From positions 79,484,001-79,548,000 of the forward strand of contig JBMRGM010000036.1 in the NCBI GenBank assembly GCA_052327205.1: a stretch of 64,000 nt of DNA. The letters run 5' to 3'. This document shows positions 7,884 to 38,315 of this stretch, in pieces. How positions within the stretch are numbered: position 1 is the first letter of the stretch; the number at the start of each line of letters is the position of its first letter. Position numbers and translations under genes: made by a program. The notes under the pieces are model-generated. The model made no database searches. It saw nothing but the letters and a program-made list of their open reading frames with translations, and was not told where the DNA came from. This DNA is from Somniosus microcephalus (taxonomy: Eukaryota).

Positions 7884-7949
7884 GTCAGTCGATGGACGTC
7901 ACTGGAGGAAGCGAGCGCAGCTCCTTAAAGTCTGAACATCCTTCACAAG
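7884..7949 (+). CDS. candidate 66-nt phase-1 repeat exon, copy 4 ((G)QSMDVTGGSERSSLKSEHPSQ)
   Basis: CTTTCAG| ... AAG|GTACGG, open in phase 1. Confidence 0.4.
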
Positions 7950-8698
7950 GTACGGCTTCCGGTTATCTAAATATTGCCCATTAAAGACCCCTGGTCCGGA
8001 TGGATTGCACCTGCAGAGATTAGAAGTTAGGTAATAGATAGCAGAGGCACTATTACATATAGATAAAAATTCATTAGAAAAGGGAATAGTGCCAGAGGAC
8101 TGGCGGACAGCATGTAATATAGGAGATACGTCCAGGGAACTATAGACCAGTTAGCTTAACATCGGTGGTAGGAAAGATAATAGAATCCTTACTCAAAGAT
8201 ATAATAGAAAAACATCTAGAAACCGAAAATAAAATGAAGATTAGTCGGCACGGATTTCAAAAGAGAATGCCATGCTTGACCAACCTTATTCAATTCTTTG
8301 AAGAAGTAACAGAAAGAGTAGATAAGGGTAATGTAGTAGATGTAACATATTTGGATTTTCAAAAGGCCTTTGATAATGTACCGCATAGTAGACTAAGGTC
8401 AGAGCATGCGGAGTCAGTGTCGGTAGCAGAATGGATAGCAAGCTGGCTACAAAACAGAGAGTAGGGGTTAACATAAGAACATAAGAAATAGGAGCAGGAG
8501 TAGGCCAATCGGCCCCTCGAGCCTGCTCCGCCATTCAATAAGATCATGGCTGATCTGATCCTAACCGCCAATCCACTATCACAGAACCATCTCCTGAATC
8601 TAACAGAATTAGACACACGAAATAGGAGCAGGATCAGGCTACACGGCCCCTGGGCCCGCTCCGCTACCCACAGGGCCATGACCGATCCGAACCTAGAC

Positions 8699-11600: not shown

Positions 11601-13068
11601 AGGTCCAGGTGATTTATCCGCCTTGAGTCCCATTATTTTACCGAGTACCACTTCCTTAGTGATTTTGATCGTGTTTAGCTCCTCCCCCCCCTTTAGCCCC
11701 CTGTTTGTCCAGTGTTGGGATATTCTTAGTGTCTTCTACTGTAAAGACTGATGTAAAATATTCATTCAGTGTTTTTGCCATCTCCATATTTCCCACCATT
11801 AATTTCCCGGTCTCATCCTCTAAGGGACCAACATTTACTTTAGCCACCCTTTTTCTTTTTATATAACTATAAAAACTCTTACTATCTGTTTTTATATTTT
11901 TTGCTAATTTACTTTCATAATCTATCTTCCCTTTCTTAATCAATCTTTTTGTTATTTTTTGCTGTCTTTTAAAGTTTTCCCAATCTTCTATCCTCCCACT
12001 AGATTTGGCTACCTTATATGCCCTTGTTTTTAGTCGAATACTATCCTTAATTTCTTTACTTAGCCACGGATGGCTGTCTTCTTTTACACCCTTTTCTTCT
12101 CAGTGGAATATATATTTTTTGGAAGTTGTAAAATAACTCCTTGAATGTACACCACTGATCATGTATCGTCTTACCCTTTAATCTATTTTCCCAATCCACT
12201 CTACTCAATTCCGCTCTCATACCTTCATAGTCTCCTTTATTCAAGCTTAGCACGCTTGTTTGAGATCCAACCTTCTCGCCCTCTAATTGAATATGGAATT
12301 CAACCATGTTATGGTCACTCATTCCAAGGGGATCCTTTACTGGGACATTTTTAATTAATCCCGTCTCGTTACACAGGACCAGATCTAAGGTTGCTTGCCC
12401 CCTGGTCGGTTCAGTTACATACTGCTCAAGAAACCCATCCCTAATACACTCAATGAACTCATCCTCAAGGCTGCTCTGCCCAATTTGATTTGTCCAATTA
12501 ATATGATAGTTGAAATCCCCCATAATTATAGATGTTCCCTTATTACAAGCCTCAACTATTTCCTGATTGATACTCCGTCCAACAGAGTTGCCACTGTTCG
12601 GAGGCCTATAGACTACGCCCACTAGTGTTTTTTTCCCCTTATTATTCCTTACCTCCACCCAAACTGTTTCATTATCCTGATCTTTTGACCCAATATCATT
12701 TCTCTGTATTACAGTGATTCCTTCCTTTATTAACATAGCCACCCCACCTCCCCTCCCTTCCTGCCTGTCCTTCCTAAATAACCTGGTATGTTTAATTCCC
12801 AGTCATGGTCACCCTGCAGCCATGTTTCTGTAATGGCCACAAGATCATACCCATATGTAGTTATTTGTGCCATTAACTCATCTATTTTGTTACGAATGCT
12901 ACGTGCATTCAGATAGAGAACTTTCAAAGATGTTTTGTGACACTTAGTTCCTGCTTTTGCCCTTTTTATTACTTTACCTTTTACTCGATACCTTCTGCCC
13001 CTTCCTGACACGCTCTGGTTTTTAATTTCCCCACTGCTACCTAAGTCTATGACCTTCTCTGTTGTCAT
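8699..13068 (-). pseudogene. CR1 'A' ORF2 (APE endonuclease + reverse transcriptase), frameshifted and interrupted
   Basis: YLNARS, ITETW, MGDFN, SDH (APE); PGPDG, QGSVLGP, FADDTK (RT). Confidence 0.92.
9124..10544 (+). mobile_element. 5'-truncated CR1 (different subfamily) nested in element A ORF2
   Basis: 364-aa RT ORF plus frameshifted C-terminus, ACTCTATG-type tail, TATGT duplicated at 9119-9123 and 10545-10549. Confidence 0.95.
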
Positions 13069-13109
13069 TTCTATTATTTGCTCTCTAGGAACCTCCCCCC
13101 CGCCACTAG

Positions 13110-14067
13110 TTAGTTTAAAGCCCTCTCTACAGCCCTAGTTATATGATCCGCCAGGACTCTAGTCCCAGCACTGGCCAAGTGAAGCCCGTCCCAACGGAAC
13201 AGCTCCCTCCTGCCCCAGTACTGGTGCCAGTGTCCCAGGAAGCAAAACCCATTTCTCCCACACCAGTCTTTGAGCCACGCATTTAACTCTCTAATTTTAT
13301 TTGCCCTAGCCAAATTCGCTCGTGGCTCAGGTAATAATCCAGAGATTATTACCCTTGTGGTTCTGCTTTTTAATTTGGCCCCTAGCTGCTCAAACTCCCT
13401 CAGCAGAACCTCCTTCCTTGTCCTATCTATGTCATTGGTACCAACATGGACCACGACAACTGGATCCTCCCCCTCCCACTTCAAGTTTCTCTCCAGTCCA
13501 GAGGAGATGTCCTTAACCCTGGCACCGGGCAGGCAACACAGCCTTCGGGACTCTCGCTCTCGGCTGCAAGGAACTCTATCTATCCCCCTAACGATACTAT
13601 CCCCTACCACTACAACATTTCTTTTAACTCCCCCCCACTTGAATGGCCCCCTGCTCCACGGTGCTGTGGCCAGGTTGCTCATCCTCCCTGCAGTCCCTGC
13701 TCCTGTCCCCACAGGGAGTAAGAGCCTCGAACCTGTTGGACAAGTGCAAGGGCTGCGGCTCCTCCAACACTACCTCCTGGATCCCCGTACCTGCCTCACT
13801 TCTAGTCACACCATCCTGACCCTGGCCACGGACTACATCTGAATTAATTAATCTAATTGGTGTGACTACCTCGTGATACACAGAGTCCAGGTACCTCTCC
13901 CCCTCCCTGATGTGTCTCAGTGTTTGAAGCTCGATCTCCAGCTCTTCAACACGGAGCCAGAGTTCCTCGAGCAGCCAACACTTACTGCAAATGTGATCAC
14001 CGTGAGCATCAATGGTGTTCACCAGCTCCCACATATTGCAGCAGCAACACATCGCCTGATCTCCCAT
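13110..14067 (-). pseudogene. CR1 'A' ORF1: Cys/His zinc-finger-like + leucine zipper + SGNH/GDSL esterase, one frameshift
   Basis: CCCCNMW..HICSKC, heptad Leu, VVVGDSIVRG, HVGTND, DGLHL. Confidence 0.9.
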
Positions 14068-14292
14068 TCTATGTAATTAATTAAATTTATTAATATTATT
14101 CTTAAATATCCTCTGCCCCGATTCTAGATGGTGAATATCACACCTTAGAAACTATAAATCAAAGAGATTTAAGCTTAAAAGGGAGAAATACTCACCAACC
14201 AATCACTTACCCGCTTTCTGGTGACGTCACACTTGGATTACTTTTTACCTCTCTCCTTCCCTCCGAGTTCAGAGACTGGAGACTGGTGAACC

Positions 14293-17200
14293 TACCTGGT
14301 CTCTGGGGACTTTTATACCCCGCTCTGCCGCTGAAACACCCGCCGACGCACTGAGGCCTTACCTGGGTCTCTGGGGCCTTTGATAGCCCCGCTCTGCCGC
14401 TGAAACACCCGCCGACGCTCTGAGACCTTACCTGGTCTCTGGGGACTTTTATACCCCGCTCTGCCGCTGAAACACCCGCCGACGCTGTGAGACCTTACCT
14501 GGTCTCTGGGGACTTTTATACCCCGCTCCGCCGCTCAGGATTCCCGCCGACGCTGTGAGACCTTACCTGGTCTCTGGGGACTTTTATACCCCGCTCTGCC
14601 GCTCAGGATTCCCGCCGACGCTGTGAGACCTTACCTGGTCTCTGGGGACTTTTATACCCCGCTCTGCCGCTCAGGATTCCCGCCGACGCACTGAGGCCTT
14701 ACCTGGTCTCTGGGACTTTTATACCCCGCTCTGCCGCTCAGGTTTCCCGCCGACGCTGTGAGGCCTTACCTGGTCTCTGGGGACTTTTATACCCCGCTCT
14801 GCCGCTCAGGATTCCCGCCGACGCTGTGAGGCCTTACCTGGTCTCTGGGGACTTTTATAGCCCCGCTCTGCCGCTCAGGATTCCCGCCGACGTTGTGAGG
14901 CCTTACCTGGTCTCTGGGGCCTTTTATACCCCGCTCTGCCGCTCAGGATTCCCGCCGACGCTGTGAGACCTTACCTGGTCTCTGGGACTTTTATACCCCG
15001 CTCTGCCGCTCAGGATTCCTGCCGACGCTGTGAGACCTTACCTGGTCTCTGGGGACTTTTATACCCCGCTCTGCCGCTCAGGATTCCCGCCGACGCACTG
15101 AGGCCTTACCTGGTCTCTGGGGACTTTTATACCCCGCTCTGCCGCTCAGGTTTCCCGCCGACGCACTGAGGCCTTACCTGGTCTCTCGGGACTTTTATAC
15201 CCCGCTCCGCCGCTCAGGTTTCCCGCCGACGCTGTGAGGCCTTACCTGGTCTCTGGGGACTTTAATACCCCGCTCTGCCGCTCAGGTTTCCCGCCGACGC
15301 TGTGAGGCCTTACCTGGTCTCTGGGGACTTTTATACCCCGCTCTGCCGCTCAGGATTCCCGCCGACGCTGTGAGGCCTTACCTGGTCTCTGGGGACTTTT
15401 ATACCCCGCTCTGCCGCTCAGGATTCCCACCGACACTGTGAGACCTTACCTGGTCTCTGGGACTTTTATACCCCGCTCTGCCGCTCAGGATTCCCACCGA
15501 CACTGTGAGGCCTTACCTGGTCTCTGGGACTTTTATACCCCGCTCCGCCGCTCAGGTTTCCCGCCGACGCTATGAGGCATTACCTGGTCTCTGGGACTTT
15601 TATACCCCGCTCCGCCGCTCAGGTTTCCCGCCGACACTGAGACCTTACCTGGTCTCTGGGGACTTTTATACCCCGCTCTGCCGCTCAGGATTCCCACCGA
15701 CACTGTGAGGCCTTACCTGGTCTCTGGGGACTTTTATACCCCGCTCTGCCGCTCAGGATTCCCACCGACACTGAGACCTTACCTGGTCTCTGGGGACTTT
15801 TATACCCCGCTCTGCCGCTCAGGATTCCCGCCGACGCTATGAGGCATTACCTGGTCTCTGGGACTTTTATACCCCGCTCCGCCGCTCAGGTTTCCCGCCG
15901 ATGCACTGAGACCTTACCTGGTCTCTGGGGACTTTTATACCCCGCTCTGCCGCTCAGGATTCCCGCCGACGCTGTGAGACCTTACCTGGTCTCTGGGGAC
16001 TTTTATACCCCGCTCTGCCGCTCAGGATTCCCGCCGACGCTGTGAGACCTTACCTGGTCTCTGGGGACTTCTATACCCCGCTCCGCCGCTCAGGTTTCCC
16101 GCCGACGCACTGAGGCCTTACCTGGTCTCTGGGACTTTTATACCCCGCTCTGCCGCTCAGGATTCCCGCCGACGCACTGAGGCCTTACCTGGTCTCTCGG
16201 GACTTTTATACCCCGCTCCGCCGCTCAGGTTTCCCGCCGACGCTGTGAGGCCTTACCTGGTCTCTGGGGACTTTTATACCCCGCTCTGCCGCTCAGGTTT
16301 CCCGCCGACGCTGTGAGGCCTTACCTGGTCTCTGGGGACTTTTATACCCCGCTCTGCCGCTCAGGATTCCCGCCGACGCTGTGAGGCCTTACCTGGTCTC
16401 TGGGGACTTTTATACCCCGCTCTGCCGCTCAGGATTCCCACCGACACTGTGAGACCTTACCTGGTCTCTGGGGACTTTTATACCCCGCTCTGCCGCTCAG
16501 GATTCCCACCGACACTGTGAGACCTTACCTGGTCTCTGGGGACTTTTATACCCCGCTCTGCCGCTCAGGATTCCCGCCGACGCTATGAGGCATTACCTGG
16601 TCTCTGGGACTTTTATACCCCGCTCCGCCGCTCAGGTTTCCCGCCGACGCACTGAGGCCTTACCTGGTCTCTGGGGACTTTTATACCCCGCTCCGCCGCT
16701 CAGGTTTCCCGCCGATGCACTGAGACCACCTTACCTGGTCTCTGGGGACTTTTATACCACGCTCTGCCGCTCAGGTTTCCCGCCGACGCTGTGAGACCTT
16801 ACCTGGTCTCTGGGGACTTTTATACCCCGCTCTGCCGCTCAGGTTTCCCGCCGACGCTGTGAGGCCTTACCTGGTCTCTGGGGACTTTTATACCCCGCTC
16901 TGCCGCTCAGGTTTCCCGCCGACGCTATGAGGCATTACCTGGTCTCTGGGACTTTTATACCACGCTCTGCCGCTCAGGTTTCCCGCCGACGCACTGAGGC
17001 CTTACCTGGTCTCTGGGGACTTTTATACCCCGCTCTGCCGCTCAGGATTCCCGCCGATGCACTGAGGCCTTACCTGGTCTCTGGGACTTTTATACCCCGC
17101 TCCGCCGCTCAGGATTCCCGCCGACGCTGTGAGACCTTACCTGGTCTCTGGGGACTTTTATACCCCGCTCTGCCGCTCAGGTTTCCCGCCGACGCTGTGA

Positions 17201-17611
17201 GGCCTTACCTGGTCTCTGGGGACTTTTATACCCCGCTCCGCCGCTCAGGTTTCCCGCCGACGCTGTGAGGTCTTACCTGGTCTCTGGGGACTTTTATAGC
17301 CCCGCTCTGCCGCTCAGGATTCCCGCCGACGCTGTGAGGTCTTACCTGGTCTCTGGGGACTTTTATACCCCGCTCCGCCGCTCAGGTTTCCCGCCGACGC
17401 TGTGAGGTCTTACCTGGTCTCTGGGGACTTTTATACCCCGCTCTGCCGCTCAGGTTTCCCGCCGACGCTGTGAGGTCTTACCTGGTCTCTGGGGACTTTT
17501 ATACCCCGCTCTGCCGCTCAGGATTCCCGCCGACGCTGTGAGACCTTACCTGGTCTCTGGGGACTTTTATACCCCGCTCTGCCGCTCAGGTTTCCCGTCG
17601 ACGCACTGAGG
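14293..17611 (-). repeat. 68-bp tandem array (~49 copies) forming the 5' UTR of CR1 'A'; each unit has TATAAAA, CAG|GTAAGG and TCAGT/TCACA
   Basis: Minus-strand unit TATAAAAGTCCCCAGAGACCAGGTAAGGCCTCAGTGCGTCGGCGGGAATCCTGAGCGGCAGAGCGGGG; period 68 measured at 14581/14649. Confidence 0.97.
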
Positions 17612-18124
17612 ACAGTTACTCAGATTGGCAAAAGGTGGGAAGCAGTGTTCCACAAGGATCGGTGCTGGGACCACAGCTGTTCACTATTTACATAAACGAT
17701 TTGGACTCTGAAATCGGCAGTACAATTTCAAAATTTGCAGATGACACCAAATTAGTTAACACTGAGGAGGTCTGTGACAAAATGCAAGACAATATTATTA
17801 AACTTGCAGAATGGGCGTGCAATAGGCAAATGAACGTCACTATAGATAATGTGAGCTGGTACATTTTGGTAGAGGGAATAAGGAGGCCACCTACTGTTTG
17901 GAAAATAAGAGTCTAAATGGGGTCGAGGAGCAGAGGGCTCTGGGGTACAGATTCACAAATCACTAAAAGTAACGATGCAGGTTAATAAAGCCATAAAAAA
18001 AAAAAACAAGCACTGGGGTTCATTTCTAAAGGGATAGAATTGAAAAGTAGTGAAGTTATGTTAAACTTGTATTGAACCTTGGTTAGACCACACTTGGAGC
18101 ACTGCACAGTTCTGGTCTCCATAT

Positions 18125-21091
18125 ACCCGCTCCCCGTAACCCTTAATTCCCTTTACTTCTAGGAAACTATCTATTTCTGTTTTAAATTTATTTAATGATG
18201 TAGCTTCCACAGCTTTCTGGGGCAGCAAATTCCACAAACCTACCACCCTCTGAGTGAAGAAGTTTCTCCTCATCTCAGTTTTGAAAGAGCAGCCCCTTAT
18301 TTTAAGATTATGCCCCCTAGTTCTAGTTTCACCCATCATTGGGAACATCCTCACCGCATCCACCCGATCCAACCCCTTCACAATCTTATATGTTTCAATA
18401 AGATCGCCTCTCATTCTTCTGAACTCCAATGAGTAGAGTCCCAATCTACTCAACCTCTCCTCATATGACCACCCCCTCATCCCCGGGATTAACCGAGTGA
18501 ACCTTCTTTGTACTGACTCGAGAGCAAGTATGTCTTTTCTTAAGTATGGACACCAAAACTGTATGCAGTATTCCAGGTGCGGTCTCACCAATACCTTGTA
18601 TAACTGCAGCAATACCTCCTTGTTTTTATATTCTATCCCCCTAGCAATGAAAGCCAACATTCCATTGGCCTTCTTGATCACTTGCTGCACCTGCATACTA
18701 ACTTTTTGAGTTTCGTGCACCAGGACCCCCAGATCCCTTTGTACTACAGTACTTTCCAGTTTCTTGCCATTAAGATAATAACTTGCTCTATGATTTTTCC
18801 TGCCAAAGTGCATAACCTCACACTTTCCAGTATTGTATTCCATCTGCCAAATTTCTGCCCACTTACTTAGCCTGTCTATGTCACTTTGTAGGTTTTTTAT
18901 GTCCTCCTCACTCACTACTTTCCCTCCCATCTTTGTATCATCTGCAAACTTTGATATGTTACACTTGGTCCCCTCCTCCAAATCGCTAATATAGATTGTA
19001 AAGAGTTGGGGACCCAGCACTGACCCCTGCGGAACACCACTAGTTACTGATTGCCAGTCTGAGAATGAACCATTTATCCCAACTCTCTGCTTTCTGTTAG
19101 AGAGCCAATTCTCCACCCACGCCAGAATATTACCCCCAATCCTGTGATTTTTTTATCTTGAGCAATAATCTTTTGTGTGGCACCTTGTCAAATGCCTTTT
19201 GGAAGTCTAAATACACTACGTCCACTGGTTCTCCTTTATCCACCCTGTATGTTACTTCCTCAAAGAACTCAAGCAAATTTGTCAAACATGACTTCCCCTT
19301 CATGAAACCATGCTGAGTTTGTCCTATTAAATTATGTTTATCCAAATGTCCCGTTACTGTCTCCTTAATAATGGACTCTAACATTTTACCAACCACAGAT
19401 GTTAGGCTAACAGGTCTATAGTTACCAGCCTTCTGCCTACTACCCTTTTTAAATAAGGGTGTTACATTAGCAGTTTTCCAATCTGCTGGGACCTTTGCTG
19501 AGTCCAGGGAGTTTTGGAAAATTATTACCAATGCATCCACAATCCCTACCGCCACTTCCCTCAGGACCCTAGGATGTAAGCCATCAGGTCCAGGGGATTT
19601 ATCCGGCTTAATTCCCATTATTTTACCAAGTACCACTTCCTTAGTGATTTTAATCGTATTTAGCTCCTCTCCCCCTAGAGCCCCCTGTTTGTCCAGTGTT
19701 GGGATATTCTTAGTGTCCTCTACCGTAAAGACTGATACAAAATATTTGTTCAGCATTTTTGCCATCTCCATGTTTCCCACCATTAATTTCCCAGTCTCAT
19801 CCTCTAAGGGACCAACATTTACTTTAGCCACCCTTTTTCTTTTAATATAACTATAGAAACTTTTGCTATCCGTTTTTATATTTTTTGCTAATTTACTTTC
19901 ATAATCTATCTTCCCTTTCTTAATCAATCTTTTAGTTATTTTTTGCTGTCTTTTAAAGTTTTCCCAATCTTCTATCCTCCCACTAGATTTGGCTACCTTA
20001 TATGCCCTTGTTTTTAGTCGGATACTATCCTTAATTACTTTACTTAGCCACGGATGGCTATCTTTTCTTTTACACCCTTTTTTCCTCAGTGGAATATATA
20101 TTTTTTGGAAGTTGTAAAATAACTCCTTAAATGTACACCACTGATCATGTACCGTCTTACTCTTTAATCTATTTTCCCAGTCCACTCTAATCAATTCCGC
20201 TCTCATACCTTCATAGTCTCCTTTATTCAAGCCGCTTGTTTGAGATCCAACCTTCTCGCCCTCTACTTGAATATGGAATTCAACCATGTTATGGTCACTC
20301 ATTCCAAGGGCATCCTTTACTAGGACATTTTTAATTAATCCTGTCTCATTACACAGGACCAAATCTAACGTTGCTTGCCCCCTGGTCGGTTCAGTTACAT
20401 ACTACTCAAGAAACCCATCCCTAATACACTCAATGAACTCATCCTCAAGGCTGCTCTGCCCAATTTGATTTGTCCAGTTAATATGATAGTTAAAATCCCC
20501 CATAATTATAGCTGTTCCCTTATTACAAGCCTCAACTATTTCCTGATTAATACTCCGTCCAACAGAGTTGCAACTGTTCGGAGGCCTATAGACTACGCCC
20601 ACTAGTGTTTTTTTCCCCTTATTATTCCTTATCTCTACCCAAACTGTTTCACTATCCTGCTCCTTTGACCCAATATCATTTCTCTGTATTATAGTGATTC
20701 CTTCCTTTATTAACATAGCCACCCCACCTCCCCTTCCTTCCTGCCTGTCCTTCCTGATTGTTAAATAACCTGGTATGTTTAATTCCCAGTCATGGTCACC
20801 CTGCAGCCATGTTTCTGTAATGGCCACAAGATCATACCCATATGTAGTTATTTGTGCCGTTAACTCATTCATTTTGTTACGAATGCTACGTGCATTCAGA
20901 TAAAGAACTTTCAAATATGTTTTGTGACACTTAGTTCCTGTTTTTTCCCCTTTTACTACTTTACCTTTTACTCCATACCTTCTGTCCCTTCCTGACACGT
21001 TCTGTTTTTTAATTTCCCCACTGCTACCTAAGTCTATGACCTTCTCCGTTGTCATTTCTGTTATTTGCTCTCTAGGAACCTCCCCCCCCAC
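18125..21091 (-). pseudogene. CR1 'B' ORF2 (APE + RT), one stop (~20402) and one frameshift (~19140)
   Basis: ORF-track pieces 20402-21091, 19130-20362, 18061-19116 with APE and RT motifs. Confidence 0.92.
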
Positions 21092-21094
21092 TAA

Positions 21095-22045
21095 TTAGTT
21101 TAAAGCCCTCTCTACAGCCCTAGTTATATGATTTGCCAGGACTCTAGTCCCAGCACTGGCCAAGTGGAGTCCGTCCCAACGGAACAGCTCCCTCCTGTCC
21201 CAGTACTGGTGCCAGTGTCCCAAGAAGCAAAACCCATTTCTCCCACACCAGTCTTTGAGCCACGCATTTAACTCTTTAATTTTATTTATCCTAGCCAAAT
21301 TCGCTCGTGGCTCAGGTAATAATCCAGAGATTATTACCCTTGAGGTTCTGTTTTTTAATTTGACCCCTAGCTGCTCATACTCCTTTAACAGAACCTTCTT
21401 CCTTGTCCTATCTACGTCGTTTGTACCAACATGGACCACGACAACTGGATCCTCCCCCTCCAAGTTTCTTTCCAGCCCAGAAGAGATATCCTTAACCCTG
21501 GCACCGGGCAGGCAACACAGCCTTCGGGACTCCCGCTCTTGACTGCAGAGAACCCTATCTATCCCCCTAATGATACTATCCCCTACCACTACAACATTTC
21601 TTTTTACTCCCTCCACTTGAATGGCCCCCTGTACCACGGTGCTGTGGCCAGGTTGCTCATCCTCCCTGCAGTCCCCGCTCCTGCCCTCACAGGGAGTAAG
21701 AACCTCAATCCTGCTTGACAAGAGCAAGGGCTGCGGCTCCTTCAACACTACATCCTGGATCCCTGTACCTTCCTCACTCGTAGTCACACCGTCCTGTCCC
21801 TGACCACGGACTACATCTGCAGTAATTAATTTCATATGTGTGACCACCTCCTGAAACATAGAGTCCAGGAACTTCTCCCCCTCCCTGATGTGTCGCAGTG
21901 TCTGAAGCTCGGTCTCAAGCTCTTTAACATGGAGCTTGAGTTCCTCTAGCAGCAAACACTTATCGCAAATGTAATCACCGTGAGCCTCAATGGGGTCCAC
22001 CAGCTCCCACATTTCGCAACAGTGACACATCACCTGTTCACCCAT
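21095..22045 (-). CDS. CR1 'B' ORF1p, intact 316 aa: zinc-finger-like/leucine zipper + SGNH esterase
   Basis: CHCCEMW..YICDKC, LEELKLHVKELETEL, GDSIIRG, GTND, DGLH. Confidence 0.92.
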   Translation of the reverse strand: MGEQVMCHCCEMWELVDPIEAHGDYICDKCLLLEELKLHVKELETELQTLRHIREGEKFLDSMFQEVVTHMKLITADVVRGQGQDGVTTSEEGTGIQDVVLKEPQPLLLSSRIEVLTPCEGRSGDCREDEQPGHSTVVQGAIQVEGVKRNVVVVGDSIIRGIDRVLCSQERESRRLCCLPGARVKDISSGLERNLEGEDPVVVVHVGTNDVDRTRKKVLLKEYEQLGVKLKNRTSRVIISGLLPEPRANLARINKIKELNAWLKDWCGRNGFCFLGHWHQYWDRRELFRWDGLHLASAGTRVLANHITRAVERALN

Positions 22046-22339
22046 ATCTGTGTAATTAATTAAATTTCTTATTATTAGTTATGAAGACCCTCTGCCCCGA
22101 TATAGATGATAATATTACACCAGTATTTAATAGGACTTACCGAATTAAAGGTATAGAAGAGAAGGAAGAGAACCTACCAACCAGCTGATCACCAACCTCC
22201 CTCGTGGAAGCTGTCTGGGGGACCTGTCCGGTTGAATTGTCTCACTGCTCCACGTCTGCAGTGTTGGATTAGCCTGAGAGAGGGAAGCAAAACAGAGCAA
22301 CAAGCACCCCCTCACCTCCCACTTGCCCGAACTCTGCCA

Positions 22340-22430
22340 CTTACCAAACTCTACTTACACTCAATGCGACCGCACTCAGCGCTACCGCACTAAGCCCGCC
22401 CCTATTTATACCCGGATTCTACTTCCGGTT
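22340..22430 (-). promoter_or_regulatory. internal core promoter of CR1 'B': ETS site, TATA box, GC box, splice donor
   Basis: Minus strand CCGGAAGT..GGGTATAAATAGGGGCGGG (TATA starts 22410) and TTG|GTAAGT at 22344. Confidence 0.6.
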
Positions 22431-22885
22431 TCAACTCCCCAACAGCTTAATTTACTCTTTTTAAAAAAAATTAAACTTACTTCAAATAATTCACTTTTTT
22501 ACTCACTAAAATTCAGTAAATGCACTTAAAAGACTTTTTCTGCCACTTACCAAAGTCTGCTTAAACTCAATGCGATTGCACTTGGAGCACTGTGCACAGT
22601 TCTGGTCTCCATATTATAAGGATATAGAGGCACTGGAGAAGGTGCAAAAAAGATTTACAAGGATGATACCAGAACTGCGAGGTTATAACTATCAGGAAAG
22701 ATTGAACAGAGAAGAGAAGGCTGAGGGGTGACCTGATTGAGGTCTGCAGAATTATGAAAGGTTTGATAGAGTAGGCACAGAGAAGATGTTTCAACTTGTG
22801 AGGGAGACCAGAACTAGGGGCCATCAATATAAGATAATCACTAATAAATCCAATAGGGAATTCAGGAGAAACTTCTTTACCCAGA

Positions 22886-23660
22886 ACATAACATAAGAAA
22901 TAGGAGCAGGAGTCGGCCCTTCGAGCCTGCTCCGCCATTCAATAAGATCATGGCTGATCTTCTACCTCATCTTCACTTTCCTGCACGATCCCCATATCCC
23001 TTGATTCCCTTAATATTCAAAAATCTATCGATCTCTGTCTTGAATATACTCAACGACTGAGCCTCCACAGCCCTCTGGGGTAGAGAATTCCAAAGATTCA
23101 CCACCCTCCGAGTGAAGAAATTCCTCCTCATCTCAGTCCTAAATGGCCGACCCCTTATCCTGAGACTGTGACCCCTGGTTCTAGACTCCCCAGCCAGGGG
23201 AAAACATCCTCCCTGCATCTACCCTGTCAAGCCCTGTAAGAATTTTGTATGTTTCAATGAGATCACCTCTCATTCTTCTAAACTCTAGAGAATATCGGCC
23301 TAGTCTACTCAATCTCTCCTCATAGGACAATCCCCCCATCCCAGGAACCAGTCTGGTGAACCTTCGCTGCACTCCCTCTATGGCAAGTGTATCCTTCCTT
23401 AGGTGAGGAGACCAAAACTGTCCACAATACTCCAGGTGTGGTCTCACCAGGGCCCTATATAATTGTAGCAAGACGACTTTACTCTTGCACTCAAATCATT
23501 TTGTAATAAAGGCCAACATACCATTTGCTTTCCTAATTACTTGCTGTACCTGTATGTTAACTTTCAGTGATTCGTGTACAAGGACACCCAGGTCCCTCTG
23601 AACACCAACATTTCCCAATCTCTCACCATTTAAAAAATACTCTGCCTTTCTATTATTCCT
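22886..23660 (-). mobile_element. 5'-truncated CR1 3' portion
   Basis: RT C-terminus [19 protein letters not shown] and TTCTTATG tail. Confidence 0.9.
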
Positions 23661-23849
23661 ACCAGAGAGTGGTGAGAATGTGGAACTCGCTACCACAGGG
23701 AGTGGTTGAGGCGAATAGCACAGATGCATTTAAGGGGAAGCTCGATAAACACACGAGGGAGAAAGGAATAGAAGGATATGTTGATGGGGTGAGATGAAGA
23801 GGGGTGGGAGGAGGCTGGTGTGGAGCAGAAACACCGGCACGGAGCAGTT

Positions 23850-24196
23850 CACAGAATCACAGAAACCCCACAGTGCAGATAGAGGCCATTTCGGCCCATC
23901 GAGCCTGCACCGACACATATCCCACCCGATCCCCATAACCCCTACACCAACACATATCCCACCCTATCCCCGTAACCCCACGTATTTAATCCCCCTAACA
24001 CTAAGGGTCAATTTTTATCATGGCCAATCAACCTAACCCGCACATCTTTGGACTGTGGGAGGAAACCGGAGCACCCGGAGGAAACCCACGCAAACACGGG
24101 GAGAATGTGCAAACTCCACACAGACAGTCGCCCGAGGCCGGATTCGAACCCGGGTCCCTGGCGCTGTGAGGCAACAGTGCTAACCACTATGCCACC
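23850..24196 (-). mobile_element. V-SINE (HE1-like), tRNA-derived
   Basis: Head GGTGGCATAGTGGTTAGC..GGTTCGAATCC; V-domain TGTGTGGAGTTTGCACATTCTCCCCGTG..GGGTTTCCTCCGGGTGCTCCGGTTTCCTCCCAC; CR1-like tail. Confidence 0.88.
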
Positions 24197-24284
24197 GAAT
24201 GGCTTGTTTCTGTGCGTGTACTTTTTATATTATTCTATGCCGTTGGACACCATTGGAGTAACCGAACATCCTGGTGTCTGGACA

Positions 24285-24460
24285 GTTTTGGAGCGTTTTG
24301 GAGCCTTTCGGTGCGCTTTTGAGTTTTGGAGTGTTTTGTAGTGTCTGTTTAGAAGCAAGTGTTTGGGGGTGTTTGGGAGTGACTGTTTAGGAGCGAGTGT
24401 TTAGGAGTGTTTGGGAGTATTTGGGAGTGACAGTTTAGAAGCGGGTGTTTTGGAGTGTTC
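24285..24460 (+). repeat. degenerate GTGTTT(G/A)GGA simple repeat
   Basis: Visible ~10-14-bp periodicity. Confidence 0.7.
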
Positions 24461-24506
24461 AAAACGTACGGGGTCCAATTAGCTAAATATTGCTCCTATT
24501 TTTCAG

Positions 24507-24572
24507 GCGCGTCGGTGGACAACATTGGAATAGCTGAGCGCAGCTCCTTAAGGCCTGACCAATCGTCACAAG
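24507..24572 (+). CDS. candidate 66-nt phase-1 repeat exon, copy 5 ((G)ASVDNIGIAERSSLRPDQSSQ)
   Basis: TTTTTCAG| ... AAG|GTAGGG, open in phase 1. Confidence 0.4.
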
Positions 24573-24890
24573 GTAGGGTTATCTAAATATTGGCCATGTT
24601 TTTCAGGCAAGTCGTTGGACAGCTGTTGGCTGACGGACTGAGGTCGCGTTGACGGTGTGCAATCCCAGAATGCATCTGCGGGGCTGTGATGTCACGGGTA
24701 CTGAGCTGCGGAGGTCTCCGTCACGCGCACGGGCTCTGTGGTGCCTCCCCGCTTTCTGTAAAATGGGGGAGGGAGGGGGGTCCCTCGAGGACTGTGTGGG
24801 CGGGGGTGGTGGGGGTCCCCTCACAGACTGTGACTGTTGTGCCCCTAGCTTCTACCCCCCCCGACTCACCGGCCGTGTGCTCTCTTACAG

Positions 24891-24971
24891 CTTCGCACGA
24901 AGCGTCAAACAGCCAGGCTTTCTCCAGCTGGATGGCGGGCCTGCCGGATTCCAGCACGCCAGAGAGCACAG
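24891..24971 (+). CDS. internal exon of unidentified + strand gene ((A)SHEASNSQAFSSWMAGLPDSSTPEST)
   Basis: Branch-like GACTCAC, TCTCTTACAG acceptor, CAG|GTAACT donor, 81 nt phase 1-1, open. Confidence 0.6.
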
Positions 24972-25361
24972 GTAACTCACCCGGCAGCAACCCCCCCCCC
25001 CCCCCCCCGCAAACAGGTGGCAGAACCCTGCACGGGCTGAGGGCGGTCCCCAAAAACACTTTGAAAACTTCCCGCACTCGCGGGAAACTGTCCAGAAACT
25101 CCCGGCGGAAAGCGAAGGGCGAGTGGGGGGGCGGGGTGCTCGGCTGTGATACGATGCCCCTCGTGGTCAAAGAGCCTCTTGGGCGGGGGGGTGATGGGGG
25201 AGAGAGAGAGAAGTGGAAGCCTAAGTTTTGGAGTTGTGGGGGGGAGGGGGAAAAAGAGGGATTAACGCCTTACACAACGTGGACCTGAGCAGCGGCAGCA
25301 GCTTAGAGGGAGCTGAGCGGCGACTTAAAAAAAAATAAGGAGTGACGTCCTGGGACAGCAG

Positions 25362-28300
25362 AAGGCAGAGTATAAATCGAGCGGGAGCCCCAGAGAGAGC
25401 GCAGACTGGAGCAGCGAGGAGGCAGAGTATAAATCGAGCGGCAGCCCCAGAGAGAGCGCAGACTGGAGCAGCAAGGAGGCAGAGTATAAATCGAGCGGGA
25501 GGCCCAGAGAGAGCGTGAACTGGAGCAGCGAGGAGGCAGAGTATAAATCGAGCGGGAGGCCCAGAGAGAGTGCGGACTGGAGCAGCGAGAAGGCAGAGTA
25601 TAAATCGAGCGGGAGGCCCAGAGAGAGCGTGGACCGGAGCAGCGAGGAGGCAGAGTATAAATCGAGCGGGAGGCCCAGAGAGAGTGCGGACTGGAGCAGC
25701 GAGGAGGCAGAGTATAAATCGAGCGGGAGGCCCAGAGAGAGCGTGGACTGGAGCAGCGAGGAGGCAGAGTATAAATCGAGCGGGAGGCCCAGAGAGAGTG
25801 CGGACTGGAGCAGCGAGGAGGCAGAGTATAAATCGAGCGGGAGGCCCAGAGAGAGCGTGAACTGGAGCAGCGAGGAGGCAGAGTATAAATCGAGCGGCAG
25901 CCCCAGAGAGAGCGCAGACTGGAGCAGCAAGGAGGCAGAGTATAAATCGAGCGGGAGGCCCAGAGAGAGCGTGAACTGGAGCAGCGAGGAGGCAGAGTAT
26001 AAATCGAGCGGGAGGCCCAGAGAGAGTGCGGACTGGAGCAGCGAGGAGGCAGAGTATAAATCGAGCGGGAGGCCCAGAGAGAGCGTGGACCGGAGCAGCG
26101 AGGAGGCAGAGTATAAATCGAGCGGGAGGCCCAGAGAGAGTGCGGACTGGAGCAGCGAGGAGGCAGAGTATAAATCGAGCGGGAGGCCCAGAGAGAGCGT
26201 GAACTGGAGCAGCGAGGAGGCAGAGTATAAATCGAGCGGGAGGCCCAGAGAGAGTGCGGACTGGAGCAGCGAGGAGGCAGAGTATAAATCGAGCGGGAGG
26301 CCCAGAGAGAGCGTGGACTGGAGCAGCGAGGAGGCAGAGTATGAATCGAGCGGGAGGCCCAGAGAGAGTGCGGACTGGAGCAGCGAGGAGGCAGAGTATA
26401 AATCGAGCGGGAGGCCCAGAGAGAGCGTGAACTGGAGCAGCGAGGAGGCAGAGTATAAATCGAGCGGGAGGCCCAGAGAGAGTGCGGACTGGAGCAGCGA
26501 GGAGGCAGAGTATAAATCGAGCGGGAGGCCCAGAGAGAGCGCGGACCGGAGCAGCGAGGAGGCAGAGTATAAATCGAGCGGGAGGCCCCAGAGAGAGTGC
26601 GGACTGGAGCAGCGAGGAGGCAGAGTATAAATCGAGCGGGAGCCCCAGAGAGAGTGTGGACTGGAGCAGCGAGGAGGCAGAGTATAAATCGAGCGGGAGG
26701 CCCAGAGAGAGCGCGGACTGGAACAGCGAGGAGGCAGAGTATAAATCGATCGGGAGGCCCCAGAGAGAGCGTGGACTGGAGCAGCGAGGAGGCAGAGTAT
26801 AAATCGAGCGGGAGGCCCAGAGAGAGCGTGGACTGGAGCAGCGAGGAGGCAGAGTATAAATCGAGCGGGAGGCCCAGAGAGAGCGTGGACTGGAGCAGCG
26901 AGGAGGCAGAGTATAAATCGAGCGGGAGGCCCAGAGAGAGCGTGGACTGGAGCAGCGAGGAGGCAGAGTATAAATCGATCGGGAGGTCCAGAGAGAGCGT
27001 GGACTGGAGCAGCGAGGAGGCAGAGTATAAATCGATCGGGAGGCCCAGAGAGAGCGTGGACTGGAGCAGCGAGGAGGCAGAGTATAAATCTAGCGGGAGG
27101 CCCAGAGAGAGCGCGGACTGGAGCAGCGAGGAGGCAGAGTATAAATCGAGCGGGAGGCCCAGAGAGAGCGTGGACTGGAGCAGCGAGGAGGCAGAGTATA
27201 AATCGATCGGGAGGCCCAGAGAGAGCGTGGACTGGAGCAGCGAGGAGGCAGAGTATAAATCGAGCGGGAGGCCCAGAGAGAGCGCGGGCTGGAGCAGCGA
27301 GGAGGCAGAGTATAAATCGAGCGGGAGGCCCAGAGAGAGCGTGGACTGGAGCAGCGAGGAGGCAGAGTATAAATCGAGCGGGAGGCCCAGAGAGAGCGTG
27401 GACTGGAGCAGCGAGGAGGCAGAGTATAAATCGAGCGGGAGGCCCAGAGAGAGCGTGGACTGGAGCAGCGAGGAGGCAGAGTATAAATCGAGCGGGAGGC
27501 CCAGAGAGAGCGTGGACTGGAGCAGCGAGGAGGCAGAGTATAAATCGATCGGGAGGCCCAGAGAGAGCGTGGACTGGAGCAGCGAGGAGGCAGAGTATAA
27601 ATCGAGCGGGAGGCCCAGAGAGAGCGCGGACTGGAGCAGCGAGGAGGCAGAGTATAAATCGAGCGGGAGGCCCAGAGAGAGCGTGGACCGGAGCAGCGAG
27701 GAGGCAGAGTATAAATCGAGCGGGAGGCCCAGAGAGAGCACAGATCGAAGCAGCGAGGAGGCAGAGTATAAATCGAGCGGGAGGCCCAGAGAGAGCGCAG
27801 ACTGGAGCAGCGGCGGCAGCGAGGAGGCAGAGTATAAATCGAGCGGGAGGCCCAGAGAGAGCGTGGACTGGAGCAGCGAGGAGGCAGAGTATAAATCGAG
27901 CGGGAGGCCCAGAGAGAGCGTGGACTGGAGCAGCGAGGAGGCAGAGTATAAATCGAGCGGGAGGCCCAGAGAGCGCGTGGACTGGAGCAGCGAGGAGGCA
28001 GAGTATAAATCTAGCGGGAGGCCCAGAGAGAGCGTGGACTGGAGCAGCGAGGAGGCAGAGTATAAATCGAGCGGGAGGCCCAGAGAGCGCGTGGACTGGA
28101 GCAGCGAGGAGGCAGAGTATAAATCTAGCGGGAGGCCCAGAGAGAGCGTGGACTGGAGCAGCGAGGAGGCAGAGTATAAATCGAGCAGGAGGCCCAGAGA
28201 GAGTGTGGACTGGAGCAGCGAGGAGGCAGAGTATAAATCGAGCGGGAGCCCCAGAGAGAGTGCAGACTGGAGCAGCGGCGGCAGCGAGGAGGCAGAGTAT

Positions 28301-28715
28301 AAATCGAGCGGGAGGCCCAGAGAGAGCGTGGACTGGAGCAGCGAGGAGGCAGAGTATAAATCGAGCGGGAGGCCCAGAGAGAGCGCGGACTGGAGCAGCG
28401 AGGAGGCAGAGTATAAATCGAACGGGAGGCCCCAGAGAGAGCGCAGACTGGAGCAGCGAGGAGGCAGAGTATAAATCGAACGAGAGGCCCAGAGAGAGCG
28501 TGGACTGGAGCAGCAAGGAGGCAGAGTATAAATCGAACGAGAGGCCCAGAGAGAGCACAGATCGAAGCAGCGAGGAGGCAGAGTATAAATCGAGCGGGAG
28601 CCCCAGAGAGAGTGCAGACTGGAGCAGCGGTGGCAGCGAGGAGGCAGAGTATAAATCGAGCGGGAGGCCCCAGAGAGAGCGCAGACTGGAGCAGCGGCGG
28701 CAGCGAGGAGGCGGA
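25362..28715 (+). repeat. 57-bp tandem array (~59 copies) forming the 5' UTR of CR1 'C'; each unit has TATAAAT
   Basis: Unit GGCAGAGTATAAATCGAGCGGGAGGCCCAGAGAGAGCGTGGACTGGAGCAGCGAGGA; 19-aa periodicity in the ORF track. Confidence 0.97.
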
Positions 28716-28838
28716 GTACCTCCAGCGAAAACCACAAAAACAACTGCAAAACAACTAAAGTGACGTCACAACCAGGGAAGGAGCTGATGGGTGAGTAGCT
28801 GGTAAGTGTTTCTAATTAATAGTCTATTAAGTAAAGGC

Positions 28839-29739
28839 ATGGCAGGGCAGCTCAGTCCCGTGGAATGCACATCCTGTGTCATGTGGGAACTCCAGGACGC
28901 TTCCCGTGTCCTGGACAACCACATGTGCAGGAAGTCTCGTCAGCGGGAGGAGCTCGAGCTCCAGGTTTTGGAGCTTGAGCAGCAGCTGGCGTCACTGCGG
29001 TGCATCCGTGAGGCTGAGAGCTACGTGGATAGCACGATTCAGGAGGTGGTCACCCCACAGATAGTGTGTGCAGGCAGAGAAGGGGATGGGTGACCACCAG
29101 ACAGGAGAGGAGGACCAGGCAGGTAGTGCAGGAGTCCCCCGAGTGCATCTCGCTCTCCAACCAGTATTCGGTTCTGAGTACTGGTGAGGGCGATGGTTCA
29201 TCTGGGGAGTACAGCCAGAGCCAAGTCTGCGGCACCATGGGTGGCTCAGCTGTACGGGGTAGGAAGAAGAGTGGGAAAGCAATAGTGGTAGGGGAGCAGA
29301 CAGGCGTGACTGCAGGATGGTATGCTGCCTCCCTGGTGCCAGGGTCAAGGATGTCACTGACCATTCTGAGGCGGGAAGGTGAATGAAAGCCAGAGGTCGT
29401 GGTCCATATTGGTACCAACGACATAGATAGAAAGAGGGATGAGGACCTGCAGGCAGATTTCAGGGAGCTAGGAAAGAGATTAAAAAGCAGGACCTCAAAG
29501 GTAGTAATCTCCGGATTACCCCCGGTGCCACGCGCTGATGAGTATAGAAATAGGAGGATCGAGCAGATGAATGCGTGGCTGGATGGTGCAGGAGGGAAGG
29601 CTTTAGATTCCTGGAGCATTGGGACCGCTTCTGGGGGAGGTGGGACCTGTACAGGCCGGACGGGTTGCACCTCAACAGGGCCGGAACCAATGTCCTCGCG
29701 GGGAGGTTTGCTAGTGCTGTTGGGGAGGGTTGAAACTAA
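28839..29739 (+). pseudogene. CR1 'C' ORF1 (zinc-finger-like/leucine zipper + esterase), disrupted
   Basis: ECTSCVMWE..HMCRK, LELQVLELEQQL, VHIGTNDI, VVISGL. Confidence 0.85.
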
Positions 29740-29887
29740 GTTGGCAGGGGGGTGGGCACCAGGATGTAACATTGGAAAGGGGAAATAAAGTCCTCAAAGG
29801 ATTGGGAGAGGCAGAGAGCGCTAAAGTAAGAAATAGTAAGGTAATATTGGGGGGGTCAAACTAAGAGAGAATACAGGATGGTCTAAG

Positions 29888-32582
29888 ATGGGTTTACAGT
29901 GTATGTATGTGAACGCACGAAGCGTAGTCAACAAGGTAAGTGAGCTGCAGGCACAAATAGCCACATGGGAATATGATGTGGCAATAACTGAGACCTGGCT
30001 CAAAAAAGGGCAGGATTGGGTATTAAATATTCCTGGTTATAAACTGTTCAGGAAAGATAGGAGAACCAACCAGTGTTAGTCAAGAAGAATGTTACAGTGC
30101 TGGAGAGGGAGGATGTCCTGGAGAGGTCAAGGGCAGAATCTATATGGCTAGAGTTAAGAAATAATAGGTGCCATTACACTACTCGGTGTATTCGATAGAC
30201 CACCAACTAGTGGGAAAGATATGGAGGAGCAAATTTCAGAGAAATTACAGAGAGGTGCAAGAACTATAGAGTCGTGATAATGGGGGACTTCAACTATCCT
30301 AATATAGACTGGGATCGCAATAGTGTTAAAGGCAGAGAGGGGGAAGAATTCCTGAAGTGTGTTCAGGAAAACTTTCTTGATCAGTATGCTTCCGGCCCGA
30401 CGAGGGAGGAGGCATTGCTGGATCTGGTCCTGGGGAATGAGGTAGCTCAAGTGGAGCAAGTGTTAGTAGGTGAACATTTAGGGAATAGTGATCATAGTAT
30501 CATAAGTTTTGATTAGCAATGGTAAAGGACAGGGAGCAATCTAGAGTAAAAATGTTTAACTGGGGGAAGGCCAATTTCAGTGGGATGAGAACGGATCTGG
30601 CCCGGGTAAACTGCAATCAAAGATTGGCAGGAAAACTGTAATGGAACAATGGGCTACCTTTAAAGAGGAAATAGTTCAGGGACAGTCGAGGTACATTCCC
30701 ACTAGGGGGAAAGGCAGGGCAACTAAAGTCAGGGCTCCCTGGATGATGAAAGATAGAGAGTAAGATGAAGCAGAAAAAGATCACGTATGACAGACGTCAG
30801 GTTGCAAATACATCTGAGAATCAGGCTAAATATAGAAAGGTCAGAGGAGAAGTGAAAAAGAAAATAAGAGAGGGTATGAGAATAGAATGGCAGCCAACAT
30901 AAAAGGTAATCCAAAAGTCTTCTATAGGCATATAAATCGTAAAAGGGTAGTAAGAGGAGGGGCCAATTAGGGACCAAAAAGGAGACCTACGCATGGAGGC
31001 AGAGGGCATGGCTGAGGTACTAAATGAGTACTTTGCATCTGTCTTCACCAAGGAAGAGGATGCTGCCATAGACAAAGTGAAGGAAGAGGTAGTGGAGATA
31101 CTTGATGGGATAAAAATTGATAAAGGCTGGCTGTACTTAAAGTAGATAAATCACCAGGAGAGGATGGGATGCATCCTAGGATGCGGAGGGAATTGTGGGA
31201 GGAAATTGCGGAGGTACTGGTCATAATATTCCAATCCTCCTTAGATACGGGGGTAGTGCCAGAGGACTGGAGAATTGAAAATGTTACACCATTGTTCAAA
31301 AAAGGGTGTAAAGATAAACCCAGCAATTACAGGCCAGTCAGTTTGACCTCAGTAGTGGGGAAGCTTTTAGAAACAGTAATCAGGGACAAAATTAAGTCAC
31401 TTGGACCAGCATTAATTAAGGGAAGCCAGCACGGGTGTGTTAAAGGCAAATCGTGTTTAACCAACTTGATCCGAGATTTTTGATGAGGTAACAGAGAGGG
31501 TTGATGAGGGTAATGTGGTTGATGTGGTGAACGTGGATTTCCAAAAGGTGTCCGACAAAGTGCCACATAATAGGCTCGCCAGCAAAGTTGAAGCCCATGG
31601 AATAAAAGGGACGGTGGCAGCATGGATACGAAATTGGTTAAGTGACAGGAAACAGAGAGTAGTGGACGGTTGTTTTTCGGACTGGAGGAAGGTATACAGT
31701 GGTGTTCCCCAGGTGTCGGTTCTAGGACCACTGCTTTTCTCGATATATATTAATGACTTGGCCTTGGGAGTACAGGGCACTGTTTCAAAATTTGCAGATG
31801 ATACAAAACTTGGAAGTACAGTGAACAGTGAGGAGGAGAGTGACAGACTTCAGGAAGACATAAACAGGCTGGTGGAATGGGTGGACACGTGGCAGATGAA
31901 ATTTAACGCAGAAAAGTGTGAAGTGATATTCTTTCTACCAAAATGTGAGGAGAGGAAATATAAACTAAAGGGTACAATCCTAAAGGGGGTACACGAACAG
32001 AGAGACCAGGGGGTATGTGTGCACAAATCATTGAAGGTGGCAGGGCAGGTTGAGAAAGTGGTTAAAAAGGCTGACGGGATCCCGGGCTTCGTGAATAGAG
32101 GTATAGAGTACAAAAGTGTGGAAATTATGATAAACCTGTATAAAACACTGGTTCGGCCCCAACGGGAGTATTGTGTCCAATTCTGGGCACCGCACTTTAG
32201 GAAGGATGTGAAGGCCTTAGAGAGGGTGCAGAAAAGATTTACAAGATTGGTTCCAGGGATGAGGGACTTCAGTTACGTGGATGGACTGGAGAAGCTGGGC
32301 TTGTTCTCCTTGGAGCAGAGAAGGTTGAGAGGAGATTTGATAGAGGTGTTCAAAATCATGAGGGGTCGGGACAGAGTAGACAGAGAGAAACTGTTCCCAT
32401 TGGCAGAAGGGTCGAGAACCAGAGGACACAGATTTAAGGTGATTGGCAAAAGAACCAAAGGCGACACGAGGAAAAACTTTTTTACTCAGCGTGTGGTTCG
32501 GATCTGGAATGCGCTGCCTGAAAGGGCGGTGGAGGCAGATTCAATCGTGGCTTTCAAAAGGGAATTGGATAAGTACCTGTAG
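29888..32582 (+). pseudogene. CR1 'C' ORF2 (APE + RT), multiple frameshifts
   Basis: YVNARS, ITETW, MGDFN, SDH; 355-aa RT piece with FADDTK. Confidence 0.9.
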
Positions 32583-32764
32583 GAAAATAAGGTGCAGGGC
32601 TATGGGGAAAGGGCGGGGGAGTGGGACTCACTGAAGTGCTCTTGCAGAGAGCCGGCACAGGCTCGACGGGCCAAATGGCCTCCTTCTGTGCTGTAACCAT
32701 TCTCTGATTCTATACACGGGCGAACTAACTAACGTTATTTTTGTTGCCTCTCTTTGATTTGCAG

Positions 32765-33414: not shown

Positions 33415-33715
33415 TATCCTGGGAGTGTTTGACAGGACAGTGTAGAGGGCCTTTACTCTGTATCTAACCCGTGCTGTACCTGCCCTGGTAGGGTTTGACG
33501 GGACAGTGTAGAGGGAAGCTTTACTCTATCTAACCCCATGCTGTACCTGCCCAGGGAGTGTTTGATGGGGACAGTCTAGAGGGAGCTTTACTCTGTATCT
33601 AACCCGTGCTGTACCTGCCCTGAGAGTGTTTGATGGGACAGTGTTAGAGGGAGCTTTACTCTGTATCTAACCCGTGCTGTACCTGCCCTGGGAGTGTTTG
33701 ATGGGACAGTGTAGA
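33415..33715 (-). repeat. 67-bp minisatellite, ~4.5 copies
   Basis: Reverse complement of the unit at 1490-1877. Confidence 0.92.

Positions 33716-38284: not shown

Positions 38285-38315
<31 letters not shown>

Follow-up and report, generated by a model that had tools for sequence, protein, structure and literature searches.

The stretch analysed here, 64,000 nucleotides of the Somniosus microcephalus contig JBMRGM010000036.1 (assembly GCA_052327205.1, positions 79,484,001 to 79,548,000; hereafter the window, numbered from its first letter), contains three CR1-type elements with 5' untranslated regions (UTRs), which we call A, B and C. Each carries a sense-strand TATA box in a 5' unit, and each begins close to 30 nucleotides (nt) downstream of the corresponding box position. 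Frameshift-aware alignment placed an esterase open reading frame 1 (ORF1), an endonuclease and a reverse transcriptase (RT) in all three; in the pieces scanned, Pfam matched RVT_1 in A, B and C, Exo_endo_phos in B, and PF13472 (SGNH/GDSL esterase) in ORF1 of A and B. The C ORF1 aligned at 64% to P0014 by the frameshift-aware method, and among 114 proteins the best named matches of the B ORF1 were a stingray protein (76%) and a catshark protein (61%). A and C end in 8-bp tandem repeats with no poly(A), and the tail of B is missing. Judged by these domains and tails and by a by-eye match to consensus rows labelled CR1, A, B and C are esterase-type CR1 long interspersed nuclear elements (LINEs), and the Pfam matches and alignments bear out an earlier interpretation from the letters alone (the sequence-only reading), which had proposed three CR1 elements with 5' UTRs. 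That reading had marked out 14293..28715, an interval that contains the arrays and leaves out the coding body and the 3' end of both A and C.

8470..17611, minus strand: element A, full-length esterase-type CR1, a blunt insertion into a CR1-derived host unit
about 8470-8487, minus strand: 3' tail of A, 8-bp repeats
9124..10544, plus strand: F, a younger 5'-truncated CR1 inside the RT region of A, with a 5-bp target duplication
13110..14067, minus strand: ORF1 of A, esterase type, one frameshift
14068..14292, minus strand: unique 5' UTR (tether) of A, with TGACGTCA at 14229 and donor-like sites at 14210 and 14195
14293..17611, minus strand: putative promoter array of A, 68-bp monomers, 49 TATA positions from 17571 to 14317
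18126..22582, minus strand: element B, CR1, 3' tail missing, imperfect 35-bp flank duplication
21095..22045, minus strand: ORF1 of B, intact, esterase type
22333..22582, minus strand: putative R-U-R promoter of B (R1 22582-22539; AT-rich U; R2 22376-22333)
25276..32712, plus strand: element C, full-length, decayed CR1 (13 frameshifts), 5-bp target-site duplication (TSD) at 25271-25275 and 32713-32717
25276..25361, plus strand: lead of C, about 25 nt monomer-like, then an A-rich stretch, with TGACGTC at 25343
25362..28715, plus strand: putative promoter array of C, 57-bp monomers (some 58 or 66 bp), 58 TATA positions from 25371 to 28650
28716..28838, plus strand: unique 5' UTR of C, with TGACGTCA at 28761 and donor-like sites at 28791 and 28802
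28839, plus strand: ATG of C ORF1

All boxes of the two arrays lie on the sense strand, and nearly all are canonical, with TATAAAA at 46 of the 49 positions in A and TATAAAT at 57 of the 58 in C. In B, the U region holds an ETS-like CCGGAAGT at 22428 and a single TATAAAT at 22410, flanked by one 44-bp repeat pair that is 206 bp apart and 89% identical. Counted as sense-strand TATAWAW, the box is therefore present at 46/49 (A), 57/58 (C) and 1/1 (B) positions, and in 20,000 shuffles of each unit it arose in 0.17% (A), 0.07% (C) and 22% (B, where the unit is AT-rich). The proposed array of about 49 copies of 68 bp in A was confirmed, as were the unit length and box proposed for C, although C has 58 units and not about 59. 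The monomer unit of about 206 bp suggested for B kept its TATAAAT and its 206-bp spacing, but B is an R-U-R with one TATA rather than an array. Each A monomer also contains one donor-like CAG/GTAAG. The units of A, B and C had no match elsewhere in the window outside their own 5' UTRs, and a protein search for other arrays with the translated C array (200 aa) gave no match at E<=0.01 among 8,000 candidates scored, which is uninformative. A common origin of the three units was considered and rejected, with A-C and B-C no better than shuffles and A-B reaching a marginal similarity (P 0.047) that is owed to the TATA flank. The bodies of A and B are 93% identical and their 5' UTRs are unrelated, with similarity stopping about 70 nt upstream of the ORF1 ATG. 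The empty site of A is colinear with two intact host copies. Whether the 35-bp flank duplication of B is a true TSD is doubtful, given a 2-bp indel, a mismatch and the missing tail; a deletion between two host units accounts for it equally well.

We mapped the 5' ends, which serve as a genomic proxy for start sites, by counting from the first T of TATA. The end of A falls at 29-33, a range set by 4-nt microhomology with the host that takes in the A of TCAGT at 33 and is slightly wider than the 29-32 first proposed. C follows its TSD (TACAC) with AA and then CGTGGAC at 25278, giving 28-30; this includes the proposed position 30, but the lead in which it lies is not C's own monomer. For B, a start about 34-35 nt after TATA in a partial monomer copy had been put forward; we obtained 35-39, again with 4-nt microhomology, and the partial copy is R1, one of the 44-bp repeat pair. 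If ends were spread evenly over the unit, the chance of all three ambiguity intervals touching +29..+35 would be P 0.0014, or 0.0023 for +28..+36, and for A and C alone it would be 0.026-0.037. End mapping and these probabilities together support the proposal that all three elements begin near TATA+30. In the available portion of PMC1779604, most mouse TATA boxes are placed at -32 to -29, with an extension to -34; A is inside that range, and at its edges are C, with its box at -27 to -29, and B, at -34 to -38.

A second body of evidence came from Table S2 of PMC13343379, in which the first 400 nt of each consensus were read by eye and counted by hand; parts 8, 9, 14, 28, 39, 40 and 43 of 58 were covered, together with search matches from other parts, and all statements on consensus rows refer to that portion of the table. 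Among the chondrichthyan rows, 14 combine a repeated unit with a TATA or TATA-like box, and seven of these start within +28 to +36 (1.4 expected, P 1e-4), as do 3/6 rows when canonical boxes alone are counted (P 0.015) and 3/5 of the rows read last, from whale shark, skate and sawfish (P 0.005); these P values are optimistic, with consensus starts blurred and TATA-like variants picked after looking. Kept outside the 14 were whale shark CR1-11 (its monomer is that of CR1-8; a miss when taken alone), sawfish CR1-9 (+22, weak homology), ray rows that have a TTTAAAA box but lack a repeated unit, three catshark rows in which no such unit could be seen (CR1-12, -2 and -9), six caecilian rows, each of them a miss, and seven TATA-less rows.

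The table also contains homologues of the 5' modules of A, B and C. Dogfish CR1-15b opens with a pair of 76-bp units that are homologous to the A monomer; the A tether module comes next and is present in CR1-15a as well. Catshark CR1-11b has the R-U-R layout of B, with a 289-bp unit containing TATAAAT and a start at +35. Whale shark CR1-8 and -11 contain TATAAAAG with TCAGT about 31-35 nt further on, as in A, and relative to canonical boxes the whale shark starts are +29/31 (CR1-8) and +33 (CR1-2a). When exact 12-13-nt monomer motifs were compared with the first 400 nt of the consensus rows, one of six matched, a chance match inside ORF2. Judged from these rows, the units are a heritable component of the CR1 5' UTR that is common in shark CR1, with homologues in dogfish, catshark and whale shark, and TATA marks a subset of them; phasing at about TATA+30 receives moderate independent support.

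Two further features of the rows concern the boxes themselves. In many cases a donor-like GGTRAG stands on one side of the TATA-like box and its reverse complement (CTYACC) on the other, so that a hairpin could form (whale shark CR1-2a, -7 and -8; great white CR1-14; catshark CR1-6 and -19). TATA or TATA-like boxes also occur in the 5' UTRs of L2 and ray CR1 (elephant shark L2-1 and L2-2; ray CR1-5, -6a, -9, -15, -17 and -18; caecilian L2 rows); in some rows they are part of repeated units, and those of the ray rows follow a cAMP response element (CRE)-like site. The TATA-unit design may thus extend beyond shark CR1 to these L2 and ray rows.

Between the units and ORF1, the tethers of A and C share TGACGTCA followed by two donor-like sites, a module that recurs in dogfish rows. 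The A tether includes an intron-like stretch, 70% AT, with AG at its end just ahead of the ORF1 ATG (14067), and all three tethers finish in an AT-rich stretch with AG shortly before that ATG, an arrangement from which we infer a 5' UTR intron. In a by-eye comparison the lead of C resembled the first-exon module of dogfish CR1-3/-18 and not C's own, and it meets the first monomer exactly at the site of the GT donor in those dogfish families. This lead would be explained by a splice from the promoter of an upstream CR1 or by a join at an AG microhomology; the splicing origin is uncertain because the acceptor side of the junction has no pyrimidine tract.

The arrays and the bodies differ in their apparent age. 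Across 3.5 kb, the body of C has accumulated 13 frameshifts, of which ORF1 holds 4, the endonuclease-tether region 7 and RT 2. In its 3.3-kb array, where 12.4 indel events would be expected, there is no private indel and there are at most 4 run changes of one base (P at most 0.006), with singleton substitutions at 0.18%. Since 13 frameshifts in the body stand against 0-4 array indels, C has a young array on a decayed body, and the array probably grew or was homogenised after the body decayed. For A, substitutions alone point to a young array (5 seen versus about 17 expected, a thin estimate from 2/385 sites). The CpG observed/expected ratio is 0.82 and 0.91 in the arrays of A and C, compared with 0.36-0.45 in the bodies. 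An attempt to date the bodies by conserved RT sites (second positions; C 10.6% versus 6.4-8.0% for A, B and F) was set aside as too weak.

Amplification of units at the DNA level is real, as block duplications demonstrate, among them one of 8 units in the C array; a 5'-terminal block copied from inside the array, the trace of an RT jump, was absent from the blocks listed for A. Units without TATA have also multiplied in the window. A 56-bp unit is present 20 times in one repeat copy and once in its sister copy, and 33-bp units reach 46 and 30 copies. TATA-less tandem expansions with units of 33-67 bp were found at 1491-1875, 33418-33715, 41833-42950, 45620-47135, 53033-53317 and 55308-56309; several lie within dispersed repeats, and together they mark a local hotspot where minisatellites grow. 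Because the region amplifies repeats generally, the large unit numbers need no selective explanation, and the 49 and 58 copies are probably local expansions that followed insertion.

The reading we favour, and hold to be fairly probable, is that these elements use an external TATA-type RNA polymerase II core promoter in a repeated 5' unit, lose it at a fixed phase and renew it at the DNA level. If the junctions mark start sites, the TATA of a given unit would start RNA about 30 nt downstream, and a full-length daughter would begin at that start site without the box that made it. Such a daughter would be active only with at least one further unit in the RNA; B would have one spare, and A and C many. 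Units would be regained mainly in DNA, by slippage or unequal crossover between units, and the promoter and first exon of another CR1 would sometimes be captured, as the lead of C may illustrate. The usual state of a family would be a few units, with 49 and 58 arising as local expansions after insertion. The loss of exactly one TATA per cycle, as originally claimed, does not follow: one unit would be the minimum if every unit can fire, with no fixed rate. Renewal of a reserve by tandem amplification agrees with the block duplications, but the idea of an inherited reserve of 49 or 58 copies is not supported, given the C array, which looks younger than its body, and the published CR1-group arrays of 1-5 subunits.

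Several observations weigh against the favoured reading. It depends on three elements, each with a junction blurred by microhomology or by two unexplained bases; the 5' end of B is without TSD verification (tail missing, 35-bp flank duplication imperfect), and the phase of C is taken from homology because its first 86 nt are not a remnant of the 57-bp monomer, with a match over the first 25 nt or so. Half of the consensus rows (7/14) miss the +28 to +36 interval, at +21, +23, +39, +43, +105 and two far off, and so do three of the six with canonical boxes (+21, +23, one off); narrowing the interval to +29..+35 removes two of the seven hits (+28, +36), and a third depends on box numbering. Dogfish CR1-15b has GTAAAAG where A has TATAAAAG, and dogfish CR1-7, in which a unit similar to the A monomer sits on another body, has CTTAAG at the TATA position. 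Tandem units that lack TATA occur in seven shark rows (great white CR1-2, -23, -4, -5 and -7a; catshark CR1-7a and -7b), and none of the six caecilian rows, which pair a repeated unit with a TTTAAA-type box, is in phase. With regard to growth, the indel test on the A array was not significant (P 0.31), and the source copy of C may already have been broken and moved in trans.

The TATA-less and non-canonical rows raise the alternative that these are monomers of the mouse L1 kind, in which initiator (Inr), YY1 or CRE-type elements set the start and an A/T-rich box is optional or incidental, for example as a loop between the donor-like GGTRAG and CTYACC motifs. The altered boxes in dogfish homologues of the A monomer, the seven TATA-less shark arrays and the rows with a box between a donor-like motif and its reverse complement are all consistent with this, as is whale shark CR1-7, which begins directly after CCATTTT, a motif that we take to be YY1-like. 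The same TATA-less arrays, in the same shark CR1 lineage, count against the earlier suggestion that TATA is the reason for the arrays. We consider the alternative rather unlikely nonetheless. An A/T-rich box is kept about 30 nt ahead of the 5' end in units of unrelated sequence, and the three units of the window each have a sense TATA despite no significant or only marginal mutual similarity; canonical boxes occur in GC-rich units where chance would supply them in 0.07-0.17%, and no GCCATNTT was found in the A, B or C units scanned. The full model of the sequence-only reading, in which long arrays are an inherited, selected reserve worn off by one unit per cycle, appears less probable again. 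It would fit CpG-rich arrays of 49 and 58 units on full-length copies, and indels do not show the A array to be younger than its body; however, the C array is younger, the start of C lies in a foreign piece ahead of its 58 units, few units are present in B and in the published rows (where arrays can collapse when a consensus is built), expansion in the window extends equally to TATA-less repeats, and the 50-monomer mouse promoter has been ascribed, in the available text, to unequal crossover.

Two other explanations seem very improbable. The phase could reflect integration and not initiation, through RT stops or microhomology joining at a GC-rich spot, for which the 4-nt microhomology at the 5' junctions of A and B might speak; the three junction sequences are unrelated, though, and the distance from TATA to the start is the same in the catshark consensus, whose unit is 289 bp long. 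Alternatively, the three ends could coincide by chance and the arrays could be local minisatellites, a view that gains from the six or more other expanded repeats in the window and from a target interval chosen with the data in view, but that has to accommodate P of about 0.001-0.002 and homologous units preceding CR1 bodies in other sharks. A bolder extension of the favoured reading is possible, although we doubt it: many cartilaginous-fish CR1/L2 families might have abandoned the internal-promoter rule, with an obligately lost TATA/Inr promoter actively rebuilt during copying. Rebuilding could proceed by an LTR-like (long terminal repeat) jump of complementary DNA from the 5' R to the internal R, turning R-U-R into R-U-R-U-R, or by splicing that brings in promoter units and a first exon from a CR1 lying upstream, as the lead of C suggests. 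If true, it would explain how near-identical bodies such as A and B come to have different 5' UTRs.

The shark CR1 system works like the mouse L1Md monomer promoter without being a member of it, given the CR1 body and the lack of GCCATNTT in the units scanned. In the available portions of PMC6454616 and PMC9022269, mouse L1Md elements (A, Tf, Gf) have tandem monomers and a tether before ORF1, with 5' ends that cluster at a fixed monomer position coinciding with starts mapped by CAGE (gene-expression cap analysis); the promoter is maintained by duplication, with a rare 50-monomer array from unequal crossover and promoter swaps between families. A and C likewise have tandem 5' monomers and a tether ahead of ORF1 (B has only its R-U-R), and 5' ends phased in the monomer are common to both systems (3/3 elements; 7/14 consensus rows). 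As described there, L1Md belongs to the L1 clade and has units of about 200 bp with starts near YY1 or AP-1 sites, whereas the shark elements belong to the CR1 clade and have 57-206 bp units, a canonical TATA about 30 nt upstream and an intron-like tether; the word TATA occurs 0 times in either paper. The sequence-only reading had contrasted its elements with mouse L1, a contrast that finds no support in what is available of PMC6454616, where L1 monomers likewise undergo loss of the 5' part at a phased site and are kept by duplication. Mouse L1 is thus a known case of phased truncation with renewal of monomers, and the idea of a reserve is itself no novelty.

Tandem 5' UTR motifs are noted for other mammalian L1 in the accessible part of PMC5381506. 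For the CR1 group, the Fig. 4 legend of PMC13343379 gives 1-5 repeated subunits of 100-500 bp in the 5' UTR vicinity, stated for ORF1-less elements, and the main text of that paper uses TATA, promoter, tandem and monomer 0 times each. A 32-bp direct repeat is cited for turtle and pufferfish CR1-like promoters in the available text of PMC2734521, and chicken CR1-B is described with E boxes and, in the portion of the description at hand, no mention of TATA. In Drosophila HeT-A, the accessible part of bioRxiv 10.1101/782904 places the promoter that makes copies upstream, itself uncopied, with expendable 5' sequence buffering loss; that promoter lies in the 3' UTR of a neighbour element in telomeric head-to-tail arrays, whereas shark CR1 would keep its spares in its own 5' UTR. 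The flanks of the elements in the window are host fragments and not a HeT-A-type neighbour promoter. LTR regeneration is the case of a TATA-driven external promoter. The R-U-R of B is formally like one terminal repeat arrangement, but no 3' copy of the A, B or C units, including U or R, was found, so that standard strand transfer cannot restore the promoter.

A literature search, with subscription journals outside its scope and most matches seen as listings, returned no account of TATA monomers in CR1, and an external TATA core promoter in CR1 looks new. LINE promoters are generally described as internal, since sequence upstream of the start is lost (PMC6454616, available portion), and a CR1 promoter of the external TATA type, backed by spare copies, would clearly depart from that description. 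TATA would fix the start to a few bases and so make monomer-promoter renewal testable by unit counts and 5' ends. CR1-group elements make up 22-34% of shark and ray genomes and are the dominant repeat group according to the accessible text of PMC13343379; under the favoured reading, shark genomes should contain many TATA promoters that are dispersed and expandable.

The remainder of the window adds some context. Within the 3' UTR of A, 8556-8700 (minus strand) appears to be a decayed and older version of the element's terminal motif, lying upstream of the current motif. The host of A and B is a head-to-tail CR1-derived repeat of RT fragments (2650-8469, 17609-18126 and 22579-24620), with about five units that are 72-92% alike and each carry their own duplicated 5' piece. 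Additional CR1 copies (22886-23661; 57187 onward) sit in the same host family, one about 100 bp from the position of B, and a target preference is possible. The copy at 57187-64000 (minus strand) is another CR1 of the A/B lineage, about 72% identical, with its 5' UTR beyond the window; it is interrupted at about 58127-59792 by an RT-encoding insert (RVT_1), presumably Penelope-like, and again at about 60487-62076 by an insert that we take to be DNA-transposon-like. On the plus strand, 50263-50520 is the first exon of a Dapper/DACT-family gene (PF15268), directly followed by an array of 81 copies of 25 bp, and 34520-40387 (minus strand) presumably contains exons of an LC3/ATG8-family gene, judged by similarity of translations.

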